Source: an uncultured Bacilli bacterium (GTDB taxonomy: Bacteria; Bacillota_I; Bacilli_A; RF39; UBA660). From it: a DNA stretch of 64,000 nt. The stretch is taken from contig OZ007022.1 in NCBI GenBank assembly GCA_963931515.1, positions 882,122 through 946,121 on the forward strand, given 5' to 3'. Under the pieces are notes generated by a model. That model was not told the DNA's origin. It ran no database searches and saw only the letters and a program-made list of their open reading frames with translations. Positions 6,240 through 62,956 of this stretch are shown one piece after another. Numbering within the stretch: the first letter of the stretch is position 1; the number at the start of each line of letters is the position of its first letter. The translations under genes were made by a program, and so were the position numbers.

Positions 6240-7719
6240 GATGGCCTCCTATTTGTTCGTTTCGCTTTTTGGTGGTAGCGACTTTTTCTAAATCCATAAG
6301 TTTTAAAATGGAATTTTTGCCATATTTTTCTTTAATGTTTAAAAGGGTCCCCTGGAGTTTTCTTTCTTTTGCTTCTTCTCTTTTTTCATTTTCTAAAATG
6401 TTAGTTTGTTTTTCTGAATCTGAAAATAAATCTAGTTGATGATATTTTGTTTTATGAATTTCTAATTTTTCATCTGTTACATCAATGGCGGTTAGGTTAA
6501 TTCTTTTGATTAATAGTTTGGGATTAATAATTTTATCATATAGTTTTATTAGGTTATTCATGATTATTTTAGAAGATGATGTTTTATGGGTTAAGGTTAT
6601 GGTCCCGTGAGCATGTTTAGGAATTTTTCTTCCATAAAAGTCAGTGGTTATTTCTCCTTCATAATTATTATTTATGTTTTGAATGTCATAACCAATGGTT
6701 AAGGTTAGTTTATCTGTGACAAGGCTTTTGGCTGTAAGGTCAAGGGCAAGTGAATCAGCCATTTCACAGATAACTAATTTAGTTTCTTTATAATTATATG
6801 GACAATCAAGTACTTGACCTGAGGTTATACATCTATTATTTGGAGTATAGGATTTTATAGACTCTATTGTACATGGCTCATATCCCCAAGCATGATCGAT
6901 TAATAGTTCGGCATTTATACCGAATAATTTATAAAGTAAGTCTTCATTTTGAATAGAACATCTAGCAATATCTCCCATGGTATAGATGCCATACTTTTCT
7001 AATCTTTTGGCTATTCCTTTACCTACCCGCCAAATATCGGTAATTGGTTTATGATACCATATTTGTTTTCGATAAGACGTTTCATCAAGTTTAGCTATTC
7101 TAACACCATATTTGTTTGGCTTTGTGTGTTTGGCAACGATGTCCATTGCAACTTTAGCTAGAAATAAATTGGTACCTATGCCAGCAGTGGCAGTAATACC
7201 TGTTTGTTTATAAATGTCATTAATTATTTTGGTGACAAGTTCTTCTGAGGCAAGGTTATAGTATTTTAAATAATTAGTTATGTCGGCAAATATTTCATCA
7301 ATGGAATATACAAATATGTCATCACTTGATAAATATTTTAGATATATGCTATAGATTTTGGCTGATGTATCTATATAATGAGCCATTCTGGGTTTGGCTA
7401 TTATGAAAGATAATTCTTTGGTTTTATCTTTTTTTAATTCATCATCATTAGATGATCGACCAGTAAATGGTTTATAACTATTTTGTTTTTTTCTTAGTTT
7501 ATTTATTTCTTTGACTTTTGATATTACTTCAAATAGTCTTGCTCTACCACCTACTCCATACTGTTTTAATGATGGGCTTACGGCAAGGCAAATGGTTTTT
7601 TCAGTTCTTTCTTTATCAGCAACAACGAGGTTTGTTTTTAAAGGATCTAATCCTCTTTCTACGCATTCTACTGAAGCATAGAAACTTTTTAAATCGATAC
7701 ATATATATGTCTTTTCCAT
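6232..7719 (-). CDS. Y-family (translesion) DNA polymerase, UmuC/DinB/UvrX-like
   Basis: N-terminus MEKTYICIDLKSFYASVECVERGLDP and palm/fingers region typical of the ImpB/MucB/SamB family; 495 aa. Confidence 0.8.
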   Translation of the reverse strand: MEKTYICIDLKSFYASVECVERGLDPLKTNLVVADKERTEKTICLAVSPSLKQYGVGGRARLFEVISKVKEINKLRKKQNSYKPFTGRSSNDDELKKDKTKELSFIIAKPRMAHYIDTSAKIYSIYLKYLSSDDIFVYSIDEIFADITNYLKYYNLASEELVTKIINDIYKQTGITATAGIGTNLFLAKVAMDIVAKHTKPNKYGVRIAKLDETSYRKQIWYHKPITDIWRVGKGIAKRLEKYGIYTMGDIARCSIQNEDLLYKLFGINAELLIDHAWGYEPCTIESIKSYTPNNRCITSGQVLDCPYNYKETKLVICEMADSLALDLTAKSLVTDKLTLTIGYDIQNINNNYEGEITTDFYGRKIPKHAHGTITLTHKTSSSKIIMNNLIKLYDKIINPKLLIKRINLTAIDVTDEKLEIHKTKYHQLDLFSDSEKQTNILENEKREEAKERKLQGTLLNIKEKYGKNSILKLMDLEKVATTKKRNEQIGGHHA

Positions 7720-7744
7720 TTATATCACCATAATTATTTTATCA

Positions 7745-7758
7745 CGAACGTTTGTTCT
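7745..7758. promoter_or_regulatory. LexA (SOS) box candidate upstream of the Y-family polymerase operon
   Basis: CGAACGTTTGTTCT fits the Gram-positive consensus CGAAC-N4-GTTCG; 27 bp upstream of the polymerase start codon. Confidence 0.55.
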
Positions 7759-7821
7759 TTTGAATGATTTTTTTGTTTTTGGAAAAATTTTACAAAAAAA
7801 GATTATATTTTGATAACCTTG

Positions 7822-8699: not shown

Positions 8700-8812
8700 T
8701 TGGCATTAGCTTACCTCACGGTAAGCTTTTTCTACTTCACAGAAACCTAAGGCTTCTCCATAGACCAGTATCGGATGGTTGCCACCCTAATTTTTTTGTC
8801 AAAATTTATTGA
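8700..8812 (-). ncRNA. Candidate omega-RNA (reRNA) scaffold in the right end of the tnpB element
   Basis: Directly abuts the tnpB stop codon (8813-8815); two hairpins (gcttacc-tcac-ggtaagc; agaaacc-taa-ggcttct); the second locus copy keeps the hairpins through compensatory substitutions. Confidence 0.45.
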
Positions 8813-9959
8813 TTAAATAGATTGTTCAATTCCTCTCATATATATTTCTAAACCTTTAAACATTATATTAACTGCTGCATTATAATCACGTTCATGCTCT
8901 ATATGACATATTGGACATTCCCATTTTCTTATACTTAAATCTTTGACTTCCTTATTTTGATAATTACAAACATTGCATATTTGACTACTTGGATAATATC
9001 TATCTATTTGTATCAGTTTTTTATTATTCCAGTTAGCTTTATATTTAAGTACTCTAATTATTTCTGATATTGGGTTTTCATTTAAACCTTTTGCTACATA
9101 GTGATTCTTCTGCATATTTCTTACATCTAAATCTTCAGTTACTATAATGTCATTTTCGTTTATTAGTTTATTTGTTATATCATGTATCATATGTTTTCTT
9201 GCATTTCTTATTTTTTGATATAATCTTTGTATTTTTAATTTCATTTTATATCTATTTTTACTTCCTTTTTTACATCTTGATATTCCTCTTTGTAAGCCTA
9301 TCATTCTTTTTGTGTTAAGTTTTATATTATTTTCTATTTTCTCATTAAATGATGTTACTATTAAATCTTTTATCCCTAGATCTATTCCTATTATACTTGT
9401 TGGAACAAAAGATGGTCGTATTAATTCTTCGTTGGTTAAGACACTTACATAATATCTTCCTGCATCTTTTTTAATTACGGCACTTTTTACCTCACCAGGT
9501 ATAATATTTTTATTCCTATATCCTCTAATTTTTACTTCTTTTAATTTTGGTAAGGTAATTGTCTTATTTTTTAAATCTAATTTTATACTGTTATAATTAT
9601 TACCTTTATAACCACTTTTTATATTATTAGTTTTATAACTTTCATGAACTCCTTTAGCTTTAAATCTAGGATAACCACTTCCGTTATAAAATCTTTTATA
9701 AGCATCTTCTAAATTAAATAGACTATTTCGAAGTGCGCAGCTATCAACTTCTTTTAAAAATGGATATTCTTTAGAAAGTGATGGTATCAATTTAATTTGG
9801 TCATAAGCTGTTTTACTTTTGCCTGCTATCTTATATTCTTTAATTTTATCATCTAAAAAATAATTATATATAAATCTAGCGCAACCAATAGTTTTATTAA
9901 TTAACTCTTCTTGCTTTTCATTAGGATACATTCTAAATACATAACCTTTTAGTATTTTC
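8813..9959 (-). CDS. tnpB: TnpB (IS200/IS605 OrfB; RuvC-like RNA-guided nuclease family)
   Basis: MKILKGYVFRMYPNEKQEEL start typical of OrfB; C-terminal zinc finger and RuvC-III region (CNVCNYQ...WECPICHIEHERDYNAAVNI). The track ORF extends to 10030 from an upstream start; ATG at 9957-9959 is preferred. Confidence 0.8.
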
Positions 9960-10109
9960 ATAACATCACCCTCTATCATTATTGCAATCAATATATCACG
10001 AATAGTTATATTTGTAAATAGTTTTAGCAAACGTTTGTTTACTGTTCAAAAATGCACTTTCCTTATATAATAAAAAACCCACACTTAAATGTATGAGTTT
10101 AAATTTCAA

Positions 10110-25197: not shown

Positions 25198-26053
25198 TTT
25201 CTTCTATCCTATCAAAAGTTACCCCTTTAATATAGCCATTTTTTACATCACCAATTATTAATGATATTACTTTATCATAGTCGATATTTCCACCTTTAAT
25301 TAGACAGCCTCTTTTTTTGCCTATTTCTTCGATACTTGTGACGATATCTTCATCTAGATAATCTAAATTATATCTTTCTTTTAAGATATTAGGATAATAT
25401 TTTTCTAAGGTAATTAAGATATGACAAGCAACATCAAATAAAGGTAAGGTTTCTTCTTTAATAGCTGTTAGGGCCGCTAGATTTAAAGCTTCTCTTTGAT
25501 CTAGTTTTGGCCATAGTATACCTGGGGTGTCTAGTAATTCTATTTTGTCATTTACTCTTATCCAACCAATACTTTTAGTAACTCCTGGTTTATTACCAAT
25601 ACTAGCGACTTTTTTACCAGCCAAATGGTTTATTAAGGTTGATTTTCCAACATTTGGGACACCTATTACTAATACTCTTGCTTTCCTATTTAAAAGGCCT
25701 TGTTTTTCTCTTTTTTCCCACTTTTCTTTTAAAAGTTTCTCTGTTGTATTTAAAATCTGCTTTAAATTACTATTATTTTCTAAATTAATAAGAATAACGG
25801 TATAGCCTTTACTTTCATAGTATTTTATCCATTTGTTGGTTTCATCTTTATCACATAAGTCAGCTTTGGTCATTATCATTAATCTTGGTTTATCACTAGT
25901 GTATTCATCAATATCAATTATTTTAGATGACTTAGGCATACGACTATCTACTACTTCATAAATGATATCAATGTATTTTAAATTTTCTTTGATTAATCTT
26001 TTGGTTTTAGCCATATGACCAGGGTACCAGTTAATATTTAGTTTCTCATTCAT
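25190..26053 (-). CDS. rbgA: Ribosome biogenesis GTPase A (RbgA/YlqF)
   Basis: MNEKLNINWYPGHMAKT start and circularly permuted GTPase motifs (DSRMP, VIGVPNVGKST); ATG at 26051-26053 preferred over the track's upstream GTG. Confidence 0.8.
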   Translation of the reverse strand: MNEKLNINWYPGHMAKTKRLIKENLKYIDIIYEVVDSRMPKSSKIIDIDEYTSDKPRLMIMTKADLCDKDETNKWIKYYESKGYTVILINLENNSNLKQILNTTEKLLKEKWEKREKQGLLNRKARVLVIGVPNVGKSTLINHLAGKKVASIGNKPGVTKSIGWIRVNDKIELLDTPGILWPKLDQREALNLAALTAIKEETLPLFDVACHILITLEKYYPNILKERYNLDYLDEDIVTSIEEIGKKRGCLIKGGNIDYDKVISLIIGDVKNGYIKGVTFDRIEENE

Positions 26054-26067
26054 TATAATCACTTCCT
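26019..26067. repeat. 49-bp direct repeat, copy 1 (covers the rbgA RBS and first codons)
   Basis: agttaatatttagtttctcattcattataatcacttcctatttattgttt recurs at 27109-27157 with a single-T difference. Confidence 0.8.
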
Positions 26068-26069
26068 AT

Positions 26070-26920
26070 TTATTGTTTCATTTCTAATTTCTTGTTTACC
26101 TTACCTTCTAATCGTTTTCTTTCTTTTTCAAGTTCTTTTAAACTTTTCTTAGGTGTAGGCATATCTTCGGGCATCATTCCACCAATGTCAGCAATCGCTT
26201 TTCTAACCTTTTTACCCACTTCATAATGGACATTTTTGGCATTGTATTCTCCTTGAACATTATCCCTTATAAGTTTTTGCTTCGTTTGATTGATTCTAAA
26301 CAAATTAGCTACTAGCTCATCATCATTCATATTATCTAAAATATCTTCTCTATATCGTAACTTTTTTCTTTTAAAAATGTCATCAGCTGTTTCACCATTG
26401 TATAGTCCTTTATATCCCGCATTATGAAACTCAGCCATATTTTTACTCCTGCAGATGAGGCAACTTTTTGTAAAGTATAATTACCTTGTTTTGTTAATTT
26501 TCTTTGATAAAGTCTTTTTTCATCCTCTGATAGAGAATCATATTCTTGTTCGGTGATTTCCTGCTTTCTCGTTTGAACAGCAAAATAAGTTTGACCTAAT
26601 GCGACAACTTCTTTACTTGGATCAGCATTTTGTACTATCAAATAACAAATATATCTTGATAATTTATAATCCTTAATAAATTCTTGTTTGCCTTTTCCTG
26701 TTTTTATTGGCTTGTTGATTTCAACAACCCAATCTTCATTACCATGAATACTATTATTTGCAGACATTATTGCTTTATCAATTACTTTCTTAAAATTTCT
26801 CCAATCTTTATATTCTAAAACCTTTTGCAGATCACGGGCAAGCCAATATTCGTTACCATATTCATCAATATGTTTTATATCTTCAAAAGTTTTACTAGTA
26901 TATTTATTAACAATTTCCAT
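26070..26920 (-). pseudogene. dinD: DNA-damage-inducible protein D (DinD) homologue, frameshifted
   Basis: Two overlapping ORFs (26336-26920 and 26070-26438) together align along DinD (LSRYICYLIVQNADPSKEVVALGQTYFAVQTRKQE; EFHNAGYKGLY...MPTPKKSLKELE); frames switch at the T5 run 26440-26444. Confidence 0.7.
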
Positions 26921-27108: not shown

Positions 27109-27157
27109 GTATCAAGCAGTTAATATTAGTTTCTCATTCATTATAATCACTTCCTAT
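27109..27157. repeat. 49-bp direct repeat, copy 2
   Basis: Near-identical to 26019-26067; the two copies bracket the dinD pseudogene. Confidence 0.8.
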
Positions 27158-27260
27158 TTATTGTTTAAATAGCAAAATGTATTTATCATTATTACTGCCT
27201 GTTAAATCTATTTAATTATATCATAAATTTAAAGCAAAAGAAAAAGTAGTATTTTTACTA

Positions 27261-27835: not shown

Positions 27836-27945
27836 TTAGCTTACCTCACGATAAGCTTTTTCTACTTCACAGGGACCTTAGGTCCCTCCATAGACCAATA
27901 TCGGATAGTCGCTACCCTACTTTTTTACTTTGTCAAAATTTAACA
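27836..27945 (-). ncRNA. Orphan omega-RNA-like structured module (second copy of the tnpB right end, no tnpB attached)
   Basis: About 85% identical to 8707-8808; hairpin 2 differs by paired substitutions (agggacc-tta-ggtccct versus agaaacc-taa-ggcttct), hairpin 3 likewise; strand inferred from the tnpB-linked copy. Confidence 0.45.
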
Positions 27946-28110
27946 ATTGTTTTATTTTTTATTATATAATAGATTAACTACTCATTCTTAATGTTTGTTT
28001 AAATTAACCCTTAATATTTTTATATCATCACCTCATCTCTTTGATGTACTTAGCATATCACAAACATTTGTTCTTGTAAATAGTTTTTTATTTCTTACAA
28101 AGCAAATTCT
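27836..28110. mobile_element. tnpB-less IS200/IS605-derived remnant (right-end block plus internal left-end block)
   Basis: 27836-27945 matches the element-1 right end; 28025-28100 resembles element-1 9960-10040 (shared catcacc...atatcac...ttgtaaatagtttt). Confidence 0.45.
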
Positions 28111-28215
28111 TAGTATAAAAAAGGGGTGAAATAAATTTCACCCTTCACCCTAACGGGTGATTTTTTTTGCTTTAATCAAAATTTATTGGTAAAATTTAGT
28201 TTAAAGTGATGTTAT

Positions 28216-29376
28216 ATGATATTGTGTACTAGTAAAGATAAAGATTTTGAAAATTATAAAGAACGTATTTCTATTAGAAAAGTATTTTTTACTATTAAAG
28301 AAATTTTTAAAGATCATTGGGATGATTATCAAACTAAATATTCTCATATTAAAAGACGTCCTATTATCAATATTGTAATTGATAAATTTCTTAAATGTAA
28401 AACTTTTCTTCTTGGTTATTCTGTTTATAAATGTCCTATTTGTGATAAGGAAAAAGTTGTCCCTAATACTTGTAAAACTAGATTCTGTTCTTCTTGTGGT
28501 AATAAATACAATGAAGATAGAGCTATTTCTATCTTTTCTAAACTATTTAAATGGCGTCATCGTCATGTTGTTTTTACTATTCCAGAAGATTTAAGAGGAA
28601 TCTTTCAAAATAATAGAAAACTATTAAATCTTCTTTTTCAAGCTTCTGCTATTACTATTAAATATTGGTTTAAAGAAAAATACAAAAGGGACAATCTCAT
28701 TCCTGCCTTTATATCTGTCCTTCATACTTATGGTAGAGCTTTAAATTGGAATCCACACATTCATATGATTTTATTAGATGGTGGTATATCCAAAACAAAT
28801 TTTAAAAACATAGACTTCTTTTCATATGCTTCTTTCAGAAAACGATTTATGAAAGTCATTCTAGATTTATTAGAAAATGAACTTGGAAAAGATGAATTTA
28901 GACAAATCAAAAACGATTTATATCGTAGATACAAAGATGGCTTTTATGTTTACGCCCCTAAATCATTATATAAATCTATTAAAGATCTCTTAAAATATGT
29001 TTGTAGATATTTATCGAGACCTGTTATGGCTGAATCTCGTATTTTAGATTATGATGGTATCTTTGTCACCTTTTGGTATCAAAGGCATACTGATAACGTA
29101 ATTGTTATAGAAAAAATTCATGCTTATGAATTTATTCATCGATTAATTATTCATATCCCTGAACCAAATTTTAAATATATTAGATTTTATGGTGCTTACA
29201 ATAACAAAACTATTATTACTATTGATGTAGCTAAATTTATGGATAATGACAGAATTAATTTTAAAAAATCTCTAAACAAATGGCGTAATAAAATTTTAAT
29301 TAATTTTCATGTTGATCCTCTTATTTGTCCACATTGTCACGAAGAAATGGTATACTATAATAGTTACTACACGTAA
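28216..29376 (+). CDS. IS91-family (HUH, Y2) rolling-circle transposase
   Basis: N-terminal zinc-binding CPICDK...CKTRFCSSCG; HUH motif LHTYGRALNWNPHIHMILLDGG; catalytic tyrosine pair in LKYVCRYLSRPVMAESRI. Confidence 0.75.
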   Translation: MILCTSKDKDFENYKERISIRKVFFTIKEIFKDHWDDYQTKYSHIKRRPIINIVIDKFLKCKTFLLGYSVYKCPICDKEKVVPNTCKTRFCSSCGNKYNEDRAISIFSKLFKWRHRHVVFTIPEDLRGIFQNNRKLLNLLFQASAITIKYWFKEKYKRDNLIPAFISVLHTYGRALNWNPHIHMILLDGGISKTNFKNIDFFSYASFRKRFMKVILDLLENELGKDEFRQIKNDLYRRYKDGFYVYAPKSLYKSIKDLLKYVCRYLSRPVMAESRILDYDGIFVTFWYQRHTDNVIVIEKIHAYEFIHRLIIHIPEPNFKYIRFYGAYNNKTIITIDVAKFMDNDRINFKKSLNKWRNKILINFHVDPLICPHCHEEMVYYNSYYT

Positions 29377-29389
29377 CTAAGGAGGTCAT

Positions 29390-29638
29390 ATGAAACAAAA
29401 TTTATATATTAATAATTCTAATGAAGAATTTGATACTTGGTTTTATGATAATACATCTGATGATATTGAAACTACTTGTTTATCCTGTGGTTATACAGAA
29501 TTAGTCCCTGATTTTATTTATGATGAAATGTCTAGAAAAAAATACCATTTTAAAATTAGAAAAAAAGTTTCTACTTTAACTTGTCAAAAATGTGGCAAAA
29601 ATACAGCTATTCCTTCATCGTTTTTAAAAAATAACTGA
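29390..29638 (+). CDS. Small zinc-ribbon protein (82 aa) immediately downstream of the IS91-family transposase
   Basis: Two CxxC pairs (CLSCGY, CQKCGK); strong RBS AAGGAGG; followed by a hairpin terminator at 29655-29690. Confidence 0.5.
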   Translation: MKQNLYINNSNEEFDTWFYDNTSDDIETTCLSCGYTELVPDFIYDEMSRKKYHFKIRKKVSTLTCQKCGKNTAIPSSFLKNN

Positions 29639-29704
29639 TGTTATTCTTTTTGGCATGTTCATATTTTTCATCACCTATTTTTTAGGTGATTTTTTTATCC
29701 ATTC

Positions 29705-29730
29705 TATAAATGCACTTTCCTTATATATAA
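29705..29730. repeat. Second copy of the IS200/IS605-type left-end terminal block
   Basis: aaatgcactttccttatata matches 10048-10070 at the outer left end of the tnpB element. Confidence 0.5.
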
Positions 29731-29752
29731 AAAATAAGTAGAATTAATCTAC

Positions 29753-42564: not shown

Positions 42565-43485
42565 TTATTCAATTGTGTATGGATTAGACTGACTTCCATC
42601 TCCGCCTGTGATTTTGATTGATGATGAGAGATAAATGGCCGGACGAACACTATGCCCACCACCATCTACTTGACCGTAGGAGCTATTTAATGTTCCATTG
42701 TGATCTACATAGAATGCACCGTTTGTACCCGTACCATTGTTGCTCGGAGATATAGTCCACCAAATGTAACCACTAAACATCCAGGTAGTATTTCTACATG
42801 TACTATAATTATCATTTGTTAAGGAATGAGTGCCACATAAACTAATATTTGAATTTGTACGTAAATATTCTGAAGTTGTAGCTAAACCAATTTTACCATT
42901 CCATATAGTATTTCTTTCAGAATTTATGGTGTTTGCTAAGTCATCGTCATCCCATAATGTTAATCCAACTTTCCAATCATGTGCAACTATTTGATTTTGA
43001 GCTGTTGAATTTAGTCCATTATAATAAGTGCTATTTAAATATGTATTTAGTGTGGATGGACGGGTCCAATTATTTGATCCCGACCTATCCCAATATTGAT
43101 CTCCTATGCTAGCTATTCTCATTATTTTTATTGTTCCATCACATTCTACTGATATTATTCTCCAGCCGGCTGTTTCATTATTAAATGTGACATAATTATT
43201 TGGATTTTGTCCTGTAAAGAAATACCTACACTCATAAGGGTCTTTTTCTAATCCTGCGTTTTCTATTATTTCTTCAGCTGGTGTTTTGGCAATGCAAGTT
43301 GCATATAGTTCATCTATCGCTCCTTGAACATTGGTACTCTCTAAACCACTTTCACTATTATCATACGTAGTTTGATTACTTGGAAAATATGTCATGGCTA
43401 AAACACTCACACCACCACATACAATAAGTCCTGTTATATACCCAGGTAGATATCCAAATACGATTTTTTTTATTTTCTCTTTCAT
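42565..43485 (-). CDS. Secreted/membrane-anchored Cys-containing protein, paralogue A (306 aa)
   Basis: N-terminal TM anchor; conserved blocks ESGLESTNVQGAIDELY, DPYECRYFFTGQNPNNY, AGWRIISVECDG; paralogous to 61656-62579. Confidence 0.5.
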   Translation of the reverse strand: MKEKIKKIVFGYLPGYITGLIVCGGVSVLAMTYFPSNQTTYDNSESGLESTNVQGAIDELYATCIAKTPAEEIIENAGLEKDPYECRYFFTGQNPNNYVTFNNETAGWRIISVECDGTIKIMRIASIGDQYWDRSGSNNWTRPSTLNTYLNSTYYNGLNSTAQNQIVAHDWKVGLTLWDDDDLANTINSERNTIWNGKIGLATTSEYLRTNSNISLCGTHSLTNDNYSTCRNTTWMFSGYIWWTISPSNNGTGTNGAFYVDHNGTLNSSYGQVDGGGHSVRPAIYLSSSIKITGGDGSQSNPYTIE

Positions 43486-43565
43486 TTTTGTTTCTCTCCT
43501 TATATTAGATTTTCTATTCTAACACAATTTCACTCCACGTTTCGTGGCTAGTCAAGACAAAAATG

Positions 43566-43586
43566 CCACATTATGCAACAATGTGG
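43566..43586. promoter_or_regulatory. Palindromic operator candidate in the divergent promoter region
   Basis: CCACATT-atgcaac-AATGTGG, 14 bp upstream of the XRE regulator start. Confidence 0.4.
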
Positions 43587-43599
43587 ATGGTGATGTAAA

Positions 43600-43833
43600 A
43601 TGATAGGAAAGATTATAAAATATGCAAGAAAACAATCTGGTTTGACGCAAGAGGAGCTTGGCAAGTTAGCTAATATAAATAGAACAACTTTGGGTAATTA
43701 TGAAACGGAGTTTAGACAACCAACTTTTGAGATGATTGAGACTTTGCTTAATAAATGTGGAGTTAAAATATTTTTTGAGATGAGTAATGGTGAAAAATTT
43801 GAAAGTAAGGATGTTTTAAGAAAAGACATTTAA
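43600..43833 (+). CDS. XRE-family HTH transcriptional regulator
   Basis: HTH (ARKQSGLTQEELGKLANINRTTLGNYE). Confidence 0.65.
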   Translation: MIGKIIKYARKQSGLTQEELGKLANINRTTLGNYETEFRQPTFEMIETLLNKCGVKIFFEMSNGEKFESKDVLRKDI

Positions 43834-43860: not shown

Positions 43861-44991
43861 TTATACCATCATGAATGTTCCTGGTAAATATATTAAAATT
43901 ATAGCAGCGACTAACATAATTATGCCAGCAATTAATCTATTATATGTTCCTATTGTATTTTCAATGATTAATTCTTTAATGATGACATTTACAACGCCGA
44001 CTAGAATTAAGCTAGTGATTAAATACATAAGGAAGTATAAGAACATGTAAGGTGCGGATGTTGTAACATTTTGCATTTCGAAGGCAGTTTCTAATAGTAC
44101 TGATGAACTTTGTGATTGGTTAACTAAAACAAACGAAGTTATAACACTAGTAATTATGATTCCAAGTGAATACATGAGGAATTGTTTTTTACCAAATAGT
44201 TCTTGAAGTATTTGAAGAATGCTTTTTTTAGGGATGTTTATTTTTAGATGTGCGTCAATACTAATGGCGGCAATGATGATTGCTACAATGGCAATGAAGG
44301 TTCTAATAAAGGTTGTTTGATTAATAGTAAATTCGGCATTAGTAAGGGCAAATATCATATAGGTGATGGTACTTGTAAAAACAAATATGCCGCCTAATAT
44401 TAAACGTTTTTTATTATTATATACAGCTAGCATGATACCGGCTAAAAATAGGATAATCCAAAGAGAGCCTAGATTTATTGCATCTCCTATTCCTTCAGTA
44501 AAGGCAATTGTTATTGGGCTTGTTTCTTTAACATTTGTTTCACCTAATAAACTAAAGTGGATGGTTGGGTCTTGGCTTTGATTAATATTTGTTGGGACTG
44601 ACTTACCATTTTTAATTAATTCGACAGCATTTATATTTTCTTGTTTTAAACTATCAATAATAGTTTGTTTCATTTGTTTACCTATTTCATCGTTAAAGCC
44701 AGAAAAATATTTATTTCCAATAATGGTGAATGGTACTCCTTCATTATTATCACCAAAAGCTGTTCTAACTTGATTTAAAAGTTCAAGATTATCGTCATTG
44801 TTCCACACTTCATATGTTTGAATATTAAGGTTTTTGCCTAGTTGTTTTTGAAGAATGTCTAAATATTTTTCTTCATCTGCGCAGTGCGGGCAACCGTCAC
44901 CGTGAAAAAGGGTTAAAGTTACTTCTTCGGCATTTACTTTAGTAAATGGAATGATTAAAATTAAAGTTAAAATTAATATTATTTTTTTCAT
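43861..44991 (-). CDS. Membrane protein with N-terminal secreted thioredoxin/glutaredoxin-like CxxC domain
   Basis: Signal peptide, CPHC motif (GDGCPHCADEE), then about 7 TM helices; overlaps the cysteine desulfurase gene by 4 nt. Confidence 0.5.
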   Translation of the reverse strand: MKKIILILTLILIIPFTKVNAEEVTLTLFHGDGCPHCADEEKYLDILQKQLGKNLNIQTYEVWNNDDNLELLNQVRTAFGDNNEGVPFTIIGNKYFSGFNDEIGKQMKQTIIDSLKQENINAVELIKNGKSVPTNINQSQDPTIHFSLLGETNVKETSPITIAFTEGIGDAINLGSLWIILFLAGIMLAVYNNKKRLILGGIFVFTSTITYMIFALTNAEFTINQTTFIRTFIAIVAIIIAAISIDAHLKINIPKKSILQILQELFGKKQFLMYSLGIIITSVITSFVLVNQSQSSSVLLETAFEMQNVTTSAPYMFLYFLMYLITSLILVGVVNVIIKELIIENTIGTYNRLIAGIIMLVAAIILIYLPGTFMMV

Positions 44992-58334: not shown

Positions 58335-58424
58335 TATACATTATCGTAGATTTTTAGTTATCGGAGAAAATGAAAGAAATCCTTATGATTAAAGGGTTTC
58401 TTTTTGACTTTTCTCCGATAACAA
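58335..58424. repeat. RIT left terminal inverted repeat
   Basis: Reverse complement of 61581-61670 with one mismatch; preceded by an extra 20-bp palindrome (58315-58334, TTATCGGAG/TTCTCCGATAA). Confidence 0.8.
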
Positions 58425-58466
58425 TTATAATAGTTTCCGCTGGCAAAGTGTCAGTAAGGAAGGAGT

Positions 58467-59690
58467 GTGTATATGAATACACAAGATTTTAAAATTTATA
58501 TTAAAAATATTAGGAAGGAGGCATTAGAAATTGGATATTCTATTAAAACGATGGATGGATATTTAGTGATATGGAATAAATTCATTAAATGGAAAAATGA
58601 AATTCATTTTGTATATGATGAAAAAGAATACTCTAAATTTTTGTTTGATTATTATCATTTTGATGTTAGTAAATTTACTAATAAATCTAAGTCTAGACAT
58701 CAACAATTAATGAGATCAAAAAGAATACTAGATAATTTTGATAGTTATAAAATACATATACTTAAAAGAAGCTTGCCTAAAGCATTATATTCTAATTATC
58801 CTAGTAATTGGAATATAATTTTAGATGGTTATTTAAATTATTTAAAAAATGTAAGACAAAATAGCGATAACAGTATTAAAATCAAAGGAGATTATTTAGT
58901 TCATTTGCTATCTTATTTTTATCAAAATAAAATAAATGATTTAAAACAATTATCTAAATTAGATATTACAAATTTTATAAATAAAGTGGTAGAAAAAGGT
59001 AATATTTCCAAAAGAAGAAACTTCTATGTTCTAGGTGACTTTTTAAAATATTTATTTATAGAAAATATTCTACTTGAAGATTTATCTGTTTATGTTCCAA
59101 GAATTAATCGAAGAAAGAAAAGAAAACTACCAACTTATTTAAAACAAGAAAATATTGAAAAGTTGCTTGAAAGCATTCCGAAATTAAAAAAGGTTGATAT
59201 CAGAAATTATGCCATCATCTTACTTGCCGCAAGACTGGGACTTAGACTAAGTGATATTTTAAATATTAAACTAAAAGATATTGATTGGAAAAATAAAAAA
59301 ATAAATATTATACAGCCTAAAACTAATAACTTAAATATACTCCCTTTATCTAAAGAGGTTGGGTGGGCCATTATTGATTATATTAATAAAGCTAGGCCTA
59401 AATGTAATAATGAATACTTGTTCATCAAAATGCATTATCCGTTTGAAAAAATGGAACAATTTACTGATTTTAATAAATATTTTGATAAGTGTGATTTTAA
59501 GCAAAAAGATACAAAAAAAGGAATTCATAATCTAAGACATTCCCTCGCAACCAATCTATTAGATAATGATATTCCTATTCACATTATTTCATCAGTCTTA
59601 GGTCATACATCTACTGATACTACCTCTAATACATATCTAAAGATTGACCTTAAAAATCTTAAAAAAGTATGTTTGGAGGTAGATGAATAA
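58467..59690 (+). CDS. Tyrosine recombinase, RIT subunit A-like (407 aa)
   Basis: Catalytic R..H..R..Y region (HNLRHSLATNLL ... GHTSTDTTSNTYLK). Confidence 0.75.
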   Translation: MYMNTQDFKIYIKNIRKEALEIGYSIKTMDGYLVIWNKFIKWKNEIHFVYDEKEYSKFLFDYYHFDVSKFTNKSKSRHQQLMRSKRILDNFDSYKIHILKRSLPKALYSNYPSNWNIILDGYLNYLKNVRQNSDNSIKIKGDYLVHLLSYFYQNKINDLKQLSKLDITNFINKVVEKGNISKRRNFYVLGDFLKYLFIENILLEDLSVYVPRINRRKKRKLPTYLKQENIEKLLESIPKLKKVDIRNYAIILLAARLGLRLSDILNIKLKDIDWKNKKINIIQPKTNNLNILPLSKEVGWAIIDYINKARPKCNNEYLFIKMHYPFEKMEQFTDFNKYFDKCDFKQKDTKKGIHNLRHSLATNLLDNDIPIHIISSVLGHTSTDTTSNTYLKIDLKNLKKVCLEVDE

Positions 59691-60628
59691 TGCGAGAATA
59701 TAATACCATATTTGATGAATTTATTCAATTTAAACATTTTTTAGGATATAAATATAAAACTGATGAAATAGTTATTAATGAAATAAAAAATTATCTAATA
59801 GAACATAATATTACTAAAATAACTAAAGAAGTTACCGAAGATTATGCGGGGTTAAATACTAATATATCATCTAATACAATAGCCAGAAATATGGGAGTAT
59901 TTAGAGAATTTTGTAATTTTTTAAAATATCAAAAAGATATAGATTGTTATCAAATACCAAACAAAATATATCCACAAAACCATAATAACTTTATTCCTTA
60001 TATATTTTCATATGAAGAAATTAAGTTGATTTATTCTAACTTAAACGAACCACTAAAAGATTATCATTATAGTTACTATAAACAAAAAGCTTATCCTTTA
60101 ATTATTAAAATACTTTATCAAACTGGTATGCGAATCGGAGAACTGTTAAATATTAAGCTTGAAGATTATAATTATGAATTATCTGCGTTTAAACTTACGG
60201 ATACTAAAAATAATGAAGAAAGATATGTGGCTATTTCTGATAAATTAAATGAAGAAATAAATAAATTTGTAACTAAATTTTTCTATAATAAATCAAATGA
60301 TGAATATATTTTTAAAATACACGGAGATTCAGCTACAAAATATTTTAAAAAAGTATTAATGTTATCTAATATTAAAATAACTGATAAAGGGCCTAGACTA
60401 CATGATTTAAGGCATACTTACCTTGTTCATAATATTGATAAAGCTATTAAAGAAAATAGAGATGTAAATCAAATATTACCTATACTAAAAACTCAGATTG
60501 GACATAAAAGTTTAAATTCTATTGCTTATTATTTTCATATTAATAAAGATATATTAGGAACAGTTAATGAAATATCAGAGAACGAACTAGGTTATCTAAT
60601 ACCAAGTATAGGTGAAGATAATGAATAA
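59690..60628 (+). CDS. Tyrosine recombinase, RIT subunit B-like (312 aa)
   Basis: LHDLRHTYLVHNI ... GHKSLNSIAYYFHI; start overlaps the previous stop (ATGA). Confidence 0.75.
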   Translation: MREYNTIFDEFIQFKHFLGYKYKTDEIVINEIKNYLIEHNITKITKEVTEDYAGLNTNISSNTIARNMGVFREFCNFLKYQKDIDCYQIPNKIYPQNHNNFIPYIFSYEEIKLIYSNLNEPLKDYHYSYYKQKAYPLIIKILYQTGMRIGELLNIKLEDYNYELSAFKLTDTKNNEERYVAISDKLNEEINKFVTKFFYNKSNDEYIFKIHGDSATKYFKKVLMLSNIKITDKGPRLHDLRHTYLVHNIDKAIKENRDVNQILPILKTQIGHKSLNSIAYYFHINKDILGTVNEISENELGYLIPSIGEDNE

Positions 60629-61580
60629 AGATTTTTCATATTACTTATCAAAGTTTTTAAAAGACTACTTAATTATAGAAAGAAATATGTCATTACATAC
60701 TGTTCGTTCCTATAAAAAGACATTTCAAACACTTATAGATTATTTAGTAAACATTAAAAATTTTAAGTTACAAAATATCACATTTGAAAATATAGCTAGA
60801 GAAATAATTATAGAGTTTTTAAATTACCTAGAAGATGATAAAAAAAACAGTATTAGAACAAGGAATCAGAGGCTAGCCTGTATAAAATCATTTTATCAGT
60901 ACTGTATGATAGATGAAATAGATAATATTGATAACATCAGAAAAATATTGAGTATTAAAGCAAAAAAAGAAACTAAGAAAGTAATGAGTTATCTTACAGA
61001 AGATGAATTACAAAAATTATTTAATAGTATAGATACAACAACAAATAAAGGTAGAAGGAACTTAACCTTACTCACACTTTTATATGATACAGCAGCTAGA
61101 ACCAGTGAAATTATTAATCTTAAAGTAGAAAATATACATTTAGAAGAAAAATATATAATATTAACTGGAAAAGGTAATAAACAAAGAATAGTATCTATGA
61201 TGGAACAAACAAAAAAATTATTAATTAATTATATTAAAGAAAATCATATAAAAAGTGGCTATTTATTTAATATTAATGGCAACAAAATGAACGAAAGATT
61301 TTTAAGAGATATTGTAAAAGTAACAAATTCATTAGACAAACAAATATCACCACATACATTTAGACATACAAGAGCTGTCCATTTACTCGATAAAGGAGTT
61401 AATATAATATATATTCAGGAATTACTTGGACACACATCAGTTAATACAACGATGGAATATGCGAAAGTAATAGAAAAGTCAAAATTTGAAGCCATTGAAA
61501 AAGCAAATCCTAAGATGGATAATAATTTGCCTGATTGGAATGATGATAAAGATTTACTTAGCCAACTATTGAACTTGTAA
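60612..61580 (+). CDS. Tyrosine recombinase, RIT subunit C-like (322 aa)
   Basis: XerC/D-like N-terminal core-binding region and HTFRHTRAVHLL ... GHTSVNTTMEYAK. Confidence 0.75.
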   Translation: MKIMNKDFSYYLSKFLKDYLIIERNMSLHTVRSYKKTFQTLIDYLVNIKNFKLQNITFENIAREIIIEFLNYLEDDKKNSIRTRNQRLACIKSFYQYCMIDEIDNIDNIRKILSIKAKKETKKVMSYLTEDELQKLFNSIDTTTNKGRRNLTLLTLLYDTAARTSEIINLKVENIHLEEKYIILTGKGNKQRIVSMMEQTKKLLINYIKENHIKSGYLFNINGNKMNERFLRDIVKVTNSLDKQISPHTFRHTRAVHLLDKGVNIIYIQELLGHTSVNTTMEYAKVIEKSKFEAIEKANPKMDNNLPDWNDDKDLLSQLLNL

Positions 61581-61670
61581 TTGTTATCGGAGAAAAGTCA
61601 AAAAGAAACCCTTTAATCATAAGGATTTCTTTCATTTTCTCCGATAACTAAAAATCTACGATAATGTGTA
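61581..61670. repeat. RIT right terminal inverted repeat
   Basis: Inverted copy of 58335-58424; its outer 15 bp supply the last four codons and stop of the flanking gene. Confidence 0.8.
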
Positions 61671-62579
61671 AGGGTCTGACTCAGTTCCGGTTCCTGATAA
61701 TTTTAGGTCTGAGGAAAGATAGAGAACAGGAAGAATATTATTTGAAACTCTTGGAAGAGTATCATAATAAGAGCCTGTAATTGGTCCACAATATACATAA
61801 TTACTCATATTTTGAGATTTTGTCAAGGTCCACCAATATTCGTCGCTTTGGCTTACATCTAACCAACTAGTAGATTCACATGTATGATTAAAAACCGAAT
61901 TATCATAATACAAATCATATGTACCACATTCTTCTATATTAGAATTAATTCTTATATATTCACTTAATGTTGCTAAAGCAATTTCCCCATTCCATGTTGT
62001 ATTATTTTCATCATTTATTTGGTCGGCTAAATCATTATTGTTTTCGTTTAATCCTCCTATGCTAAAGTCGTGAGCAACAATTTGATTTTGAGCTGTTGAT
62101 GTTAAACTATTATAATATGTGTTGTTTAAATAAGTGTTCAAATCTGCTGGACGATTCCAATTGGTTGAATTTGAACTATCCCATGCCATACCTCCTATAC
62201 TTTCATTCCTTATTATCTTTATGCTTCCATCACATTCTACTGATATAATTCTCCAGCCGGCTTGTTCATTATTAAATGTTATATAGTTATTTGGGTTTTG
62301 CCCAGTAAAGAAATATCTACATTCATATGGATCTTTTTCTAAATCTACTTTTTCAAGCATTTGCTCTCCTGTTGTTGGTTCCTTTGTACATTCTGTATAA
62401 AGTTCATCTATTGCTTCTTGAACATTATTTGATTCTAAGCCACTTTCAGTATTACTATAAAACACTTCATTACTTGGGAATGTTATAGCAGCATATACGG
62501 CTACTCCACTTATTAAAAGTCCTCCTATGATAAAAGCGATTAAATTTGTTTTTAAATATCTCTTTATATTTTGTTTCAT
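61656..62579 (-). CDS. Secreted/membrane-anchored Cys-containing protein, paralogue B (307 aa); last codons supplied by the RIT repeat
   Basis: Same conserved blocks as paralogue A; ends ...DPYTLS* where the final codons lie in the RIT repeat; the displaced native end (YTIE*, plus terminator) sits at 58262-58314. Confidence 0.55.
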   Translation of the reverse strand: MKQNIKRYLKTNLIAFIIGGLLISGVAVYAAITFPSNEVFYSNTESGLESNNVQEAIDELYTECTKEPTTGEQMLEKVDLEKDPYECRYFFTGQNPNNYITFNNEQAGWRIISVECDGSIKIIRNESIGGMAWDSSNSTNWNRPADLNTYLNNTYYNSLTSTAQNQIVAHDFSIGGLNENNNDLADQINDENNTTWNGEIALATLSEYIRINSNIEECGTYDLYYDNSVFNHTCESTSWLDVSQSDEYWWTLTKSQNMSNYVYCGPITGSYYDTLPRVSNNILPVLYLSSDLKLSGTGTESDPYTLS

Positions 62580-62740
62580 ATTTTTCTCCCTTTTTATATA
62601 CTTAAACTACTTATTCTCTTGGAAATTATATTATTGTTCGTTGCTTTTATCGGTCGTATTGACCTACTTATAATAAGTATAAATCATTTTGGGGTATACT
62701 GTCAATAATGATTTTAAAAAAATATTAAGTAGGTGAACCG

Positions 62741-62956
62741 ATGAAGATAAATGCTTTAGATTACGATTCAAAAGAACTTTTTAAGATAATTAGAGAATGG
62801 TCTGAACTTACTCAAGAGGAGTTTGCGAAGAAGATTAATGTTTCTAAGGGAACTGTTCAAAATTATGAGCAAGGAAAAAGAAATTATACTTTTAAAAGTT
62901 TAATGGAAATATGTAAGAAGAGTAATATTAATATAATTTTTGAAAAGAAAAAATAA
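62741..62956 (+). CDS. XRE-family HTH transcriptional regulator (71 aa)
   Basis: HTH (WSELTQEEFAKKINVSKGTVQNYEQG); divergent from paralogue B. Confidence 0.6.
   Translation: MKINALDYDSKELFKIIREWSELTQEEFAKKINVSKGTVQNYEQGKRNYTFKSLMEICKKSNINIIFEKKK

Follow-up and report, generated by a model that had tools for sequence, protein, structure and literature searches.

A lineage-expanded family of predicted lectin-fold DUF6273 proteins with divergent XRE partner genes in uncultured Bacilli

RESULTS

The locus and the question it raises

Two paralogous genes, A and B, lie in a 64,000-nt stretch of contig OZ007022.1 of an uncultured Bacilli bacterium (assembly GCA_963931515.1, positions 882,122 to 946,121; hereafter, the window), and each faces a small, divergently transcribed regulatory gene of the XRE type. 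What kind of protein do these genes encode, and why is each accompanied by a regulator of its own? A first-pass annotation of the window had described them as two modules coding for a secreted, Cys-containing protein of a family it could not place, perhaps a lectin-like or adhesin-like surface protein under dedicated control. The evidence presented below indicates that A and B are probably exported lectin-fold binding proteins belonging to a family in which the corresponding loop of sister copies is diversified by a diversity-generating retroelement (DGR), and that each is probably controlled by a private Cro/CI-like repressor. The coordinates of all features are collected in Table 1.

A and B belong to the DUF6273 family

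BLASTP aligned A and B end to end with 53% identity (E = 5e-110), and each faces a divergent HTH_3/XRE open reading frame (ORF), which bears out the description of two paralogous modules. The blocks reported as shared, ESGLES(T/N)NVQ(G/E)AIDELY, DPYECRYFFTGQNPNNY and AGWRIISVECDG, were all found in the alignment. No third family copy was detected in the window by tblastn. The family proved to be placeable: residues 129-287 of A matched Pfam DUF6273 (PF19789) with 31.7 bits (E 1.7e-7; gathering cutoff 23.5), a model carried by most homologues. B scored 11.6 bits, under the cutoff.

The AlphaFold2 (AF2) model had a mean confidence (pLDDT) of 79.7. The predicted fold matched the N-terminal domain (NTD) of ThomasA (PDB 9qa6), the sole DUF6273 domain solved, and was structurally similar to C-type lectin-like domains. 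The suggestion of a lectin-like or adhesin-like protein is consistent with this prediction, 'lectin-like' referring here to the modelled fold as distinct from demonstrated sugar binding. The C-type lectin folds of DGR proteins generally lack the Ca2+/carbohydrate motifs (EPN/QPD, WND) of true C-type lectins. Sequence searches of the PDB returned chance-level matches only and NCBIfam nothing meaningful, while phage DUF6273 proteins were matched in BFVD (E 5e-8). In the literature, DUF6273 is described as a C-lectin-like domain with a DGR variable region at its C-terminus.

The predicted layout comprises a signal peptide, an N-terminal motif, a lectin-like body, a hypervariable stretch and a conserved VRPxLYLSS...GxGxxxxPY tail. 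The N-terminus has a Lys-rich start followed by about 22 hydrophobic residues. V28 and A30, at positions -3 and -1 of the putative cleavage site, were invariant among 44 homologues, and residues 2-33 formed a low-confidence helix in the AF2 model. The secretion proposed at first pass is thus matched by an N-terminal export signal, and the -3/-1 rule suggests that the signal peptide would be cleavable. Two other types of signal were considered and rejected. Lipoprotein status was dismissed, since a Cys in the hydrophobic segment was kept in just 24% of the family and the residues preceding it do not fit a lipobox. A SipW/TasA-type signal, called to mind by the ...A-T-Y-F-P-S... segment and by ...GYSAFS... 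in phage homologues, found no library model in its support.

Residues 32-64 of A are the most conserved part of the protein, with an entropy minimum of 0.40 bits at residues 51-60. As regards cysteines, C64, C217 and C230 were conserved in 98-100% of the family, and C86 and C115 in 51% each. The 32-64 motif also occurs in phage ORFs, and A weakly matched a PHROG tail-fibre family (E 0.007). Elsewhere, YDNxESGLxxxNVQxAIDE(L) acts as an independent module: it was found as three tandem copies in one phage ORF (L097, 2707-3807) and at the N-terminus of another of 150 aa (L102, 5965-6417), while a giant protein of 5298 aa (P0133) contained 44 matched stretches of it. At locus L081, a signal peptide plus this motif was fused to an unrelated C-terminal region (196 aa) and adjoined its own XRE gene.

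The family is expanded in a few small genomes

A large protein database yielded 1767 homologues, almost all metagenomic, and a profile search of 1.84 billion representatives found 10,072 relatives at E values up to 1e-3, multi-domain proteins included. In reference genomes, 457 family stretches were confirmed. The best 80 of these came almost all from seven metagenome-assembled genomes (MAGs) titled 'uncultured Bacilli bacterium', three of which contributed at least 15-18 loci per MAG among those 80. The genome to which the window belongs (1,520,450 bp) has at least four copies, namely A, B, the paralogue P0105 and a 316-aa protein. Family copies were scattered among housekeeping genes.

The module is also used in larger proteins. 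A 1192-aa protein at locus L085 (289-3867) combines four DUF6273 domains with a Rib domain, an architecture typical of Gram-positive surface proteins. A 63-kb IMG/VR contig (L088, 4475-6840) contained two tandem homologues of 387 and 332 aa. These proteins begin with an Arg/Lys-rich region and contain a ...GYSAFS... segment that recalls signals of the TasA/SipW type; neither has a variable stretch of DGR-like appearance.

Most copies face a divergent XRE gene

The nearest library models to XRE-A were Cro/CI-type repressors, antitoxins and control proteins of restriction-modification (R-M) systems. Pairing was assessed in the 67 unique full-length copies for which 700 bp or more of upstream DNA was available. 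A divergent XRE-like ORF was present within 500 bp in 45 of them, a figure that rose to at least 47 (70%) after a Pfam check; a co-directional XRE gene was found in none of the 67. Some of the partner regulators were tandem double-helix-turn-helix (double-HTH) proteins. The first-pass annotation had staked its interpretation on this pairing being conserved among homologues, and in at least 70% of them it was.

Both palindromes noted at first pass lie exactly where they had been placed, CCACATT-N7-AATGTGG at 43566-43586 and ACTTAT-A-ATAAGT at 62666-62678. The latter can be extended to TACTTATAATAAGTA, and each overlaps elements of the best promoter-like site of its lectin gene (Table 1). Upstream of A there is also an extended -10-like element, TGTGTTAGAAT; a TGTGnTATAAT-like motif was seen by eye to recur upstream of many family genes. 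A single palindrome with arms of 6-7 nt is unremarkable in DNA of 29% GC content. Over the family, inverted repeats with arms of at least 7 nt occurred in 26 of 43 unique XRE/lectin intergenic regions, versus 9.9 ± 2.7 (maximum 20) in 200 dinucleotide shuffles. The rate of 60% compares with 37% for a control set of 163 further intergenic regions drawn from these loci. The repeats were locus-specific and often multiple, with three ATCCA..TGGAT sites at L079 and three ATAACTT..AAGTTAT sites at L030, and similar XRE proteins had the same repeat: at both L039 and L071, ATGTCT-N7-AGACAT lies between TTGACA and TATAAT. This pattern suggests that the XRE protein represses the adjoining lectin gene at a private operator.

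Several observations weigh against this interpretation. About 30% of the copies have no XRE gene. The palindrome of A was also picked up as a weak terminator-like hairpin, with a stem of 9 pairs and CATTTTTG after it. Conservation of the palindromes upstream of other copies, raised at first pass as a check, was found in part for B: its palindrome was kept in the orthologous locus L052, and the arms of a neighbouring repeat, GGTC-N5-GACC, were kept in all three orthologous loci with a variable spacer, whereas the right half of the B palindrome was lost in L050 despite an XRE protein 93% identical to XRE-B. Further, the identities of XRE proteins and lectin proteins were uncorrelated (Spearman -0.06; the observed value was reached in 1574 of 2000 permutations), so that co-divergence of the two genes was rejected, and the XRE gene might have another purpose at these loci. 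These points could be accommodated if the palindromes were not operators, that of A being an RNA hairpin (a terminator or attenuator) in the leader and that of B a product of chance, with the XRE proteins regulating something else or themselves; arms of 6-7 nt are, after all, common in shuffled sequences, and over a third of the control intergenic regions reach an arm of 7 nt. We consider this explanation unlikely, though it is the strongest of the competitors. It does not account for the enrichment of repeats across the family, for the presence in several loci of two or three copies of the same half-site pair, common to similar XREs, or for the recurrent placement over the -10 region, and the stem at A has just three G-C pairs.

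The candidate operator and candidate promoter of A have been disrupted in nature. In a variant assembly of this locus (L003, 1625-3390), an IS66-family transposase element lies within the palindrome, with a short target duplication ACATTGTTG, and parts the left arm and the putative -35 from the right arm and the -10.

Sister copies are targets of a diversity-generating retroelement

A six-frame profile scan revealed orphan 3' fragments directly downstream of full-length family genes. The fragment at locus L054 translates to SPNSSNSNNVFNVNNNGNVNNNNANNTNNAVRPAITLSS and its counterpart in the gene to SPDSGVSGRVFEVTNYGNVYSTYAFSANNAVRPAITLSS. At the DNA level, nearly all mismatches between them fell on adenines of the fragment, after which some 100 identical bases followed from GCGGTCCGCCCTGCC onwards. 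This is the relationship between the template repeat (TR) and the variable region (VR) of a DGR. Mismatches lay at template adenines in 20 of 21 cases at L054, in 19 of 19 at L058 and in 21 of 24 at L073; by this signature in their DNA, these three genes, all from one MAG, are proven DGR targets.

No reverse transcriptase (RT) gene was present within 8 kb of the template repeats of L054 (9062-9228) and L073 (9062-9226), each of which lies 120 nt downstream of its target, on different contigs of that MAG. The finding of two TR copies without an RT within 8 kb suggests that the RT acts in trans and that a genome can contain more than one copy of the TR. The L054 template copy is followed by a MutS_I-like ORF of 136 aa.

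A complete cassette was retrieved from a related A+T-rich organism (L116) by means of a short template-specific DNA pattern. It comprised a family-type target, a TR, a 374-aa RVT_1 protein, a bAvd-like ORF and MutS_I-like ORFs. The RT contains the motifs LPIGNMTSQ...YMDD (LPIGNMTSQFLS...YMDD) and lacks SQxxAN. MutS-like accessory genes beside avd are a known DGR architecture. Two chromosomal cassettes, L117 and L118, showed 16 of 16 and 15 of 15 adenine-specific mismatches, respectively. With the short pattern, the metagenome collection yielded L115 and L116, and the viral collection had no match; a longer template-specific pattern had no match in either.

The footprint of this process extends over the family. 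In 53 unique family genes, the VR differed from the rest of the gene in GC content (0.47 vs 0.31), in third-position C (0.35 vs 0.08) and in the share of residues that can derive from AAY codons (97% vs 82%). In MAG BRZ_L__bin94, four paralogues with 61% identity over the 300 nt upstream of the VR had a common VR scaffold and an identical 3' edge, the variation within the VR falling on codon positions 1, 2 and 3 at 20, 22 and 8 sites, respectively. Diverged paralogues with a common scaffold are what would be expected if one template homes into several genes. No significant link was found between XRE pairing and the DGR footprint (p = 0.09).

At L054, a proven target, the place of the XRE gene is taken by a divergent ORF of 62 aa (7598-7786, minus strand) with no Pfam match. 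By eye it looks like a ribbon-helix-helix protein, and some copies may use a different small regulator.

The variable stretches of A and B show an apparently decayed footprint or none

The Ser/Thr/Asn-rich, Trp-containing C-terminal half described at first pass does exist; what the description missed is that it occupies the position of a DGR variable region. Residues 246-279 of A and 253-281 of B align with the VR of L054, L058 and L073, between W-T-L and V-R-P anchors, at the entropy peak of the family (2.7-3.2 bits). P0105, from the same genome, has the full footprint: its VR shows a GC content of 0.56, third-position C of 0.52 and 100% AAY-set residues, and it keeps the template scaffold almost codon for codon. 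A is intermediate. Its stretch has a GC content of 0.45 and third-position C of 0.24, against 0.33 and 0.09 elsewhere in the gene, has 97% AAY-set residues, is four codons longer than the common scaffold, of which only pieces are present (GCA TTC TAT GTA; GTT CGT CCG GCC), and has many third positions drifted to A/T. In B the stretch has a GC content of 0.28, compared with 0.31 for the remainder of the gene, third-position C of 0.03 and 90% AAY-set residues; K, Q and M are present, VRP has become ILP, and the stretch could not be aligned with the orthologous loci L050 and L052. A may thus be a former DGR target in decay, its VR drifting to the A+T-rich composition of the genome, and B a target so fully decayed that every trace of the footprint has been lost.

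The case for decay in A and B is drawn entirely from composition, which tells against it, and the wider explanation is weakened by the lack of DGR components in the window. No repeat of the 3' region of A or B occurs in the window, and none of the TRs of the collected loci, including L116, L117 and L118, matched A or B; those of L116-L118 did not match the paralogues of the same genome either. With the L116 proteins as tblastn queries, no homologue of the RT, Avd or MutS-like proteins was found in the window, and no RT was found among its ten uncharacterised ORFs, which turned out to be a TnpB/IS605 element, an IS91-type transposase and housekeeping genes. On the contig of the window's genome, no RT appeared among the best 120 of 1273 RT homologues. 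A search with the C-terminus of P0105 for a template ORF returned 12 candidates only.

A, and possibly B, could instead be an active target, served in trans by a TR and an RT at another place in the 1.52-Mb genome. Targeting is proven for sister copies, whose templates act without an RT within 8 kb, P0105 carries the full footprint in the same genome, cellular DGR targets more than 100 kb from their RT have been documented, and A itself keeps its GC enrichment, its AAY-set residues and, at the 3' edge of the stretch, GTT CGT CCG GCC. Ongoing diversification nevertheless appears distinctly improbable to us. Besides the missing repeat in the window, the added codons and third-position drift of A and the bare composition of B, it sits poorly with the alleles of A: nine of them (at least 95% identity) differed within the stretch by just T252S, Y270H and one single-residue indel, a comparison of limited power as some of the assemblies possibly derive from the same samples. 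Outside the stretch they differed by block swaps affecting the signal segment, SIKITG versus DLTLS, or the whole N-terminal half (P0002). These swaps point to recombination between paralogues.

The lectin gene diverges fast at a stable site

The B locus, rpsB-tsf-XRE-lectin-uppS-cdsA, is syntenic in two MAGs (L050 and L052). XRE-B is 93% identical to the XRE proteins there (dN/dS 0.05-0.09). The XRE gene, rpsB, tsf, uppS and cdsA showed dN values of 0.03-0.08 and dN/dS ratios of 0.04-0.09, and the lectin gene a dN of 0.39-0.41 and a dN/dS of about 0.3, with 0.74 reached in the variable stretch. The lectin gene thus diverges fast beside a conserved XRE gene, its non-synonymous divergence being about 5-10 times that of its neighbours, and its last ~240 nt could not be aligned with the orthologues at all. 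Orphan 5' and 3' fragments also occur at family loci, as do prematurely terminated copies. Premature in-frame stops were seen in L012 (3557-4462), L032 (8001-8903), L038 (490-1386), L055 (535-1461) and L064 (35-913); the breaks lie near profile positions 37-205, off the conserved Trp positions, so these copies look like pseudogenes rather than cases of recoding.

The lack of correlation between XRE and lectin identities implies that the modules do not simply duplicate and diverge as units. Together with the conserved XRE gene and synteny, the fast divergence of the lectin gene, and the fragments and stops, it indicates that lectin genes turn over rapidly, through birth, death and exchange, at stable sites marked by the regulator.

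The same data bear on whether the modules might be prophage remnants, that is, a tail-fibre or receptor-binding gene with its CI/Cro-like repressor. DUF6273 proteins are common as phage DGR targets and receptor-binding proteins, the XRE proteins match phage repressor families, and the phage ORFs with the N-terminal motif, the weak tail-fibre match of A and the viral contig with two tandem homologues described above could be read in this sense. We nonetheless give this origin very little credence: A and B are flanked by no other phage genes, every copy has a signal peptide, dozens of copies lie among housekeeping genes, and the B locus is syntenic across species. Least credible of all is a toxin-antitoxin or anti-phage defence module with the XRE protein as antitoxin or controller, for although the XRE proteins match HipB, PezA and MqsA-type antitoxin models and R-M control-protein models, these matches are sub-threshold, cover the generic HTH only and lie far under curated cutoffs, the two genes are divergent and not co-transcribed, A and B had no PADLOC match, and the partner is predicted to be an exported lectin-fold protein.

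Neighbouring elements in the window

A is bracketed by the ftsI/mraY/ftsW cluster and mutL, B by tsf and uppS. An element resembling a recombinase in trio (RIT) is inserted at the 3' end of B. RIT elements consist of three tandem tyrosine recombinase genes between long terminal inverted repeats, and the element at B has these features: its ends are 96-nt inverted repeats, 98% complementary, enclosing three Phage_integrase ORFs. The right repeat starts at ACATTATCGTAG, which corresponds to the last three codons of B (T-L-S) plus the stop, and the repeat also holds a terminator-like hairpin downstream of B. The element was absent from the orthologous loci L050 and L052 and present in every assembly carrying B.

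Adjoining XRE-A on the minus strand (43861-44991), a gene encodes a protein of 376 aa that combines a signal peptide and several predicted membrane spans with a CPHC motif of the thioredoxin-like type; it has no Pfam match. It is pure speculation that this might be a thiol-disulfide oxidoreductase of importance for exported proteins that contain Cys, A among them. A TnpB/IS605-type ORF (8813-10030, minus strand) lies within 8706-10076 and an IS91/Y2-type transposase ORF (28216-29376, plus strand) within 27836-29734, each flanked by related repeats, D3 (91 nt, 87%), D5 and D8; the one of 91 nt may mark the end of an element or correspond to a guide-RNA-like region. A 41-nt sequence is repeated exactly, in direct orientation, at 26038-26078 and 27126-27166, 1088 nt apart. 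At Rfam gathering thresholds, the window contains three tRNAs only.

Table 1. Positions of the features discussed, numbered along the window
Feature	Position	Strand	Remarks
Paralogue A	42565..43485	-	306 aa; predicted exported stand-alone DUF6273/C-type-lectin-like protein
A residues 1-30	43396..43485	-	Predicted signal peptide or signal anchor; ends V-x-A
A residues 32-64	43294..43392	-	Conserved motif TYFPSN..TYDN.ESGL..NVQ.AIDELY..C
A residues 246-279	42649..42750	-	Hypervariable; homologous to VR of sister copies; intermediate footprint of decayed appearance
XRE-A	43600..43833	+	77 aa; single-domain HTH_3, divergent from A; Pfam HTH_3 E 9e-13, 48.5 bits (cutoff 23)
A palindrome CCACATT-N7-AATGTGG	43566..43586		Candidate XRE-A operator, over the -10 of the best A promoter-like site
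A promoter-like site TTTACA-18-CATAAT	43599..43570	-	10/12 matches
Second A inverted repeat CCACG-TTT-CGTGG	43535..43547		Intergenic; CCAC/GTGG ends common to the first palindrome
TGTGTTAGAAT	43516..43526	-	Extended -10-like element upstream of A
Paralogue B	61656..62579	-	307 aa
B residues 253-281	61737..61823	-	VR-equivalent; no DGR footprint
XRE-B	62741..62956	+	71 aa; HTH_3, divergent from B; Pfam HTH_3 E 2e-10, 41.1 bits (cutoff 23)
B palindrome, extended form	62665..62679		Overlaps -10/+1 of the B promoter-like site
B promoter-like site TTGACA-18-TATACT	62705..62676	-	11/12 matches
GGTC-N5-GACC inverted repeat	62652..62664		Alternative or additional candidate XRE-B operator
RIT-like element	58335..61670	+	Inserted at the B 3' end, outside the module; rewrites the end of B
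Phage_integrase ORFs	58467-59690, 59690-60628, 60612-61580		Three in tandem; E 1e-29, 2e-18, 1e-32

DISCUSSION

The results suggest the following scheme. A and B belong to a DUF6273 family that has expanded massively in one lineage and whose members are predicted to be exported and to bind ligands. In sister copies, an RT, with Avd and MutS-like accessory proteins, rewrites the VR from an adenine-rich template repeat; A would be a former target drifting to an A+T-rich composition, and B one from which all of the footprint has gone. At each site, a small Cro/CI-like XRE protein would bind locus-specific inverted repeats over the -10 of the lectin promoter, with the consequence that every copy could be switched individually. 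Ligand-binding surface proteins would thereby form a repertoire that varies in sequence, through the DGR, paralogue divergence and recombination, and in expression, through the private repressors. More tentatively, and well short of what we would call probable, a lineage of small-genome gut Bacilli might commit a considerable part of its chromosome of about 1.5 Mb to dozens of exported lectin-fold paralogues, with one or a few DGR templates acting in trans and an XRE switch with a private operator for each copy, so that cells could express chosen subsets; A and B would represent 'frozen' specificities, outside the hypermutation pool yet still privately controlled.

Known DGR proteins with a C-type lectin fold include Mtd of a Bordetella phage, TvpA of Treponema denticola (PDB 2y3c) and, from gut phages, the DUF6273 'tentaclins' and Mtd-like proteins. 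By homology, A and B fall in DUF6273 and in the C-lectin-fold class of DGR variable proteins; a TR, the feature that defines a DGR target, was found for neither within the available sequence. The family described here differs from these known proteins in being cellular, in carrying predicted signal peptides and in consisting of stand-alone proteins of about 300 aa present in dozens of copies per genome of about 1.5 Mb, most of which have a private XRE gene as partner. A and B differ further in having no template detectable within the window and a footprint that looks decayed (A) or is absent (B). The DGR surveys compared here report no more than seven non-adjacent targets, in Treponema, or 15 targets spread over nine loci, in Thiohalocapsa. 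Compared with these surveys and with the literature mentioning DUF6273, what is new is the cellular stand-alone form, which has a predicted signal peptide and occurs in dozens of copies in a small genome, together with the conserved association with private XRE genes and the gradient from templated to decayed variable regions. In ThomasA, an IgA peptidase of Thomasclavelia ramosa, the DUF6273 NTD is fused to an M64 peptidase, beta-domains and a sortase motif; A and B, unlike ThomasA, have no peptidase domain. Catalysis by ThomasA does not require its DUF6273 domain, for which no function is known, and this counts against the explanation proposed here.

The partner regulators resemble the Cro/CI-type XRE repressors of phage immunity switches and the C proteins of R-M systems: they are single-domain HTH_3 proteins of 71-77 aa associated with inverted repeats over promoter elements and, in several loci, with multiple half-site pairs. 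Unlike in those systems, the partner is a predicted exported lectin-like gene and not a lytic, restriction or toxin gene, some partner regulators are double-HTH proteins, and the operator role is putative. A further parallel, with no homology implied, can be drawn with Mycoplasma. The Vsp, Vlp and Vsa surface families switch by site-specific inversion or slipped-strand changes. The family studied here is likewise a large group of predicted exported paralogues with a hypervariable region in a reduced, low-GC genome, and shows pseudogenes, gene fragments and mosaic alleles, as the Mycoplasma families do. In contrast to these, variation would arise through the DGR and divergence, and the candidate switch is a transcription factor for each copy.

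For A and B by themselves, the gain is modest: they have been placed in a known family, and the odd composition of their C-terminal half is explained. The family as a whole may prove useful in other respects. It offers a very large repertoire of targets of a single type per small genome, and its copies, which range from actively templated to fully decayed, provide a route for studying how genes enter and leave a hypermutation system. Cellular DGR targets are known mostly from computation and their mode of expression is largely unknown; here, a small regulator, probably a dedicated repressor, stands at most copies, and the candidate operators are directly testable. The family might also clarify the role of its solved relative, the N-terminal domain of ThomasA. 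If a DGR does act in trans on many dispersed paralogues, these genomes would have more targets than the surveys compared here report. If the two-layer model is true, it would amount to a bacterial surface-repertoire system that joins hypermutation to per-gene switching, and would explain how uncultured gut Bacilli vary their surface towards the host, phages and neighbouring cells.

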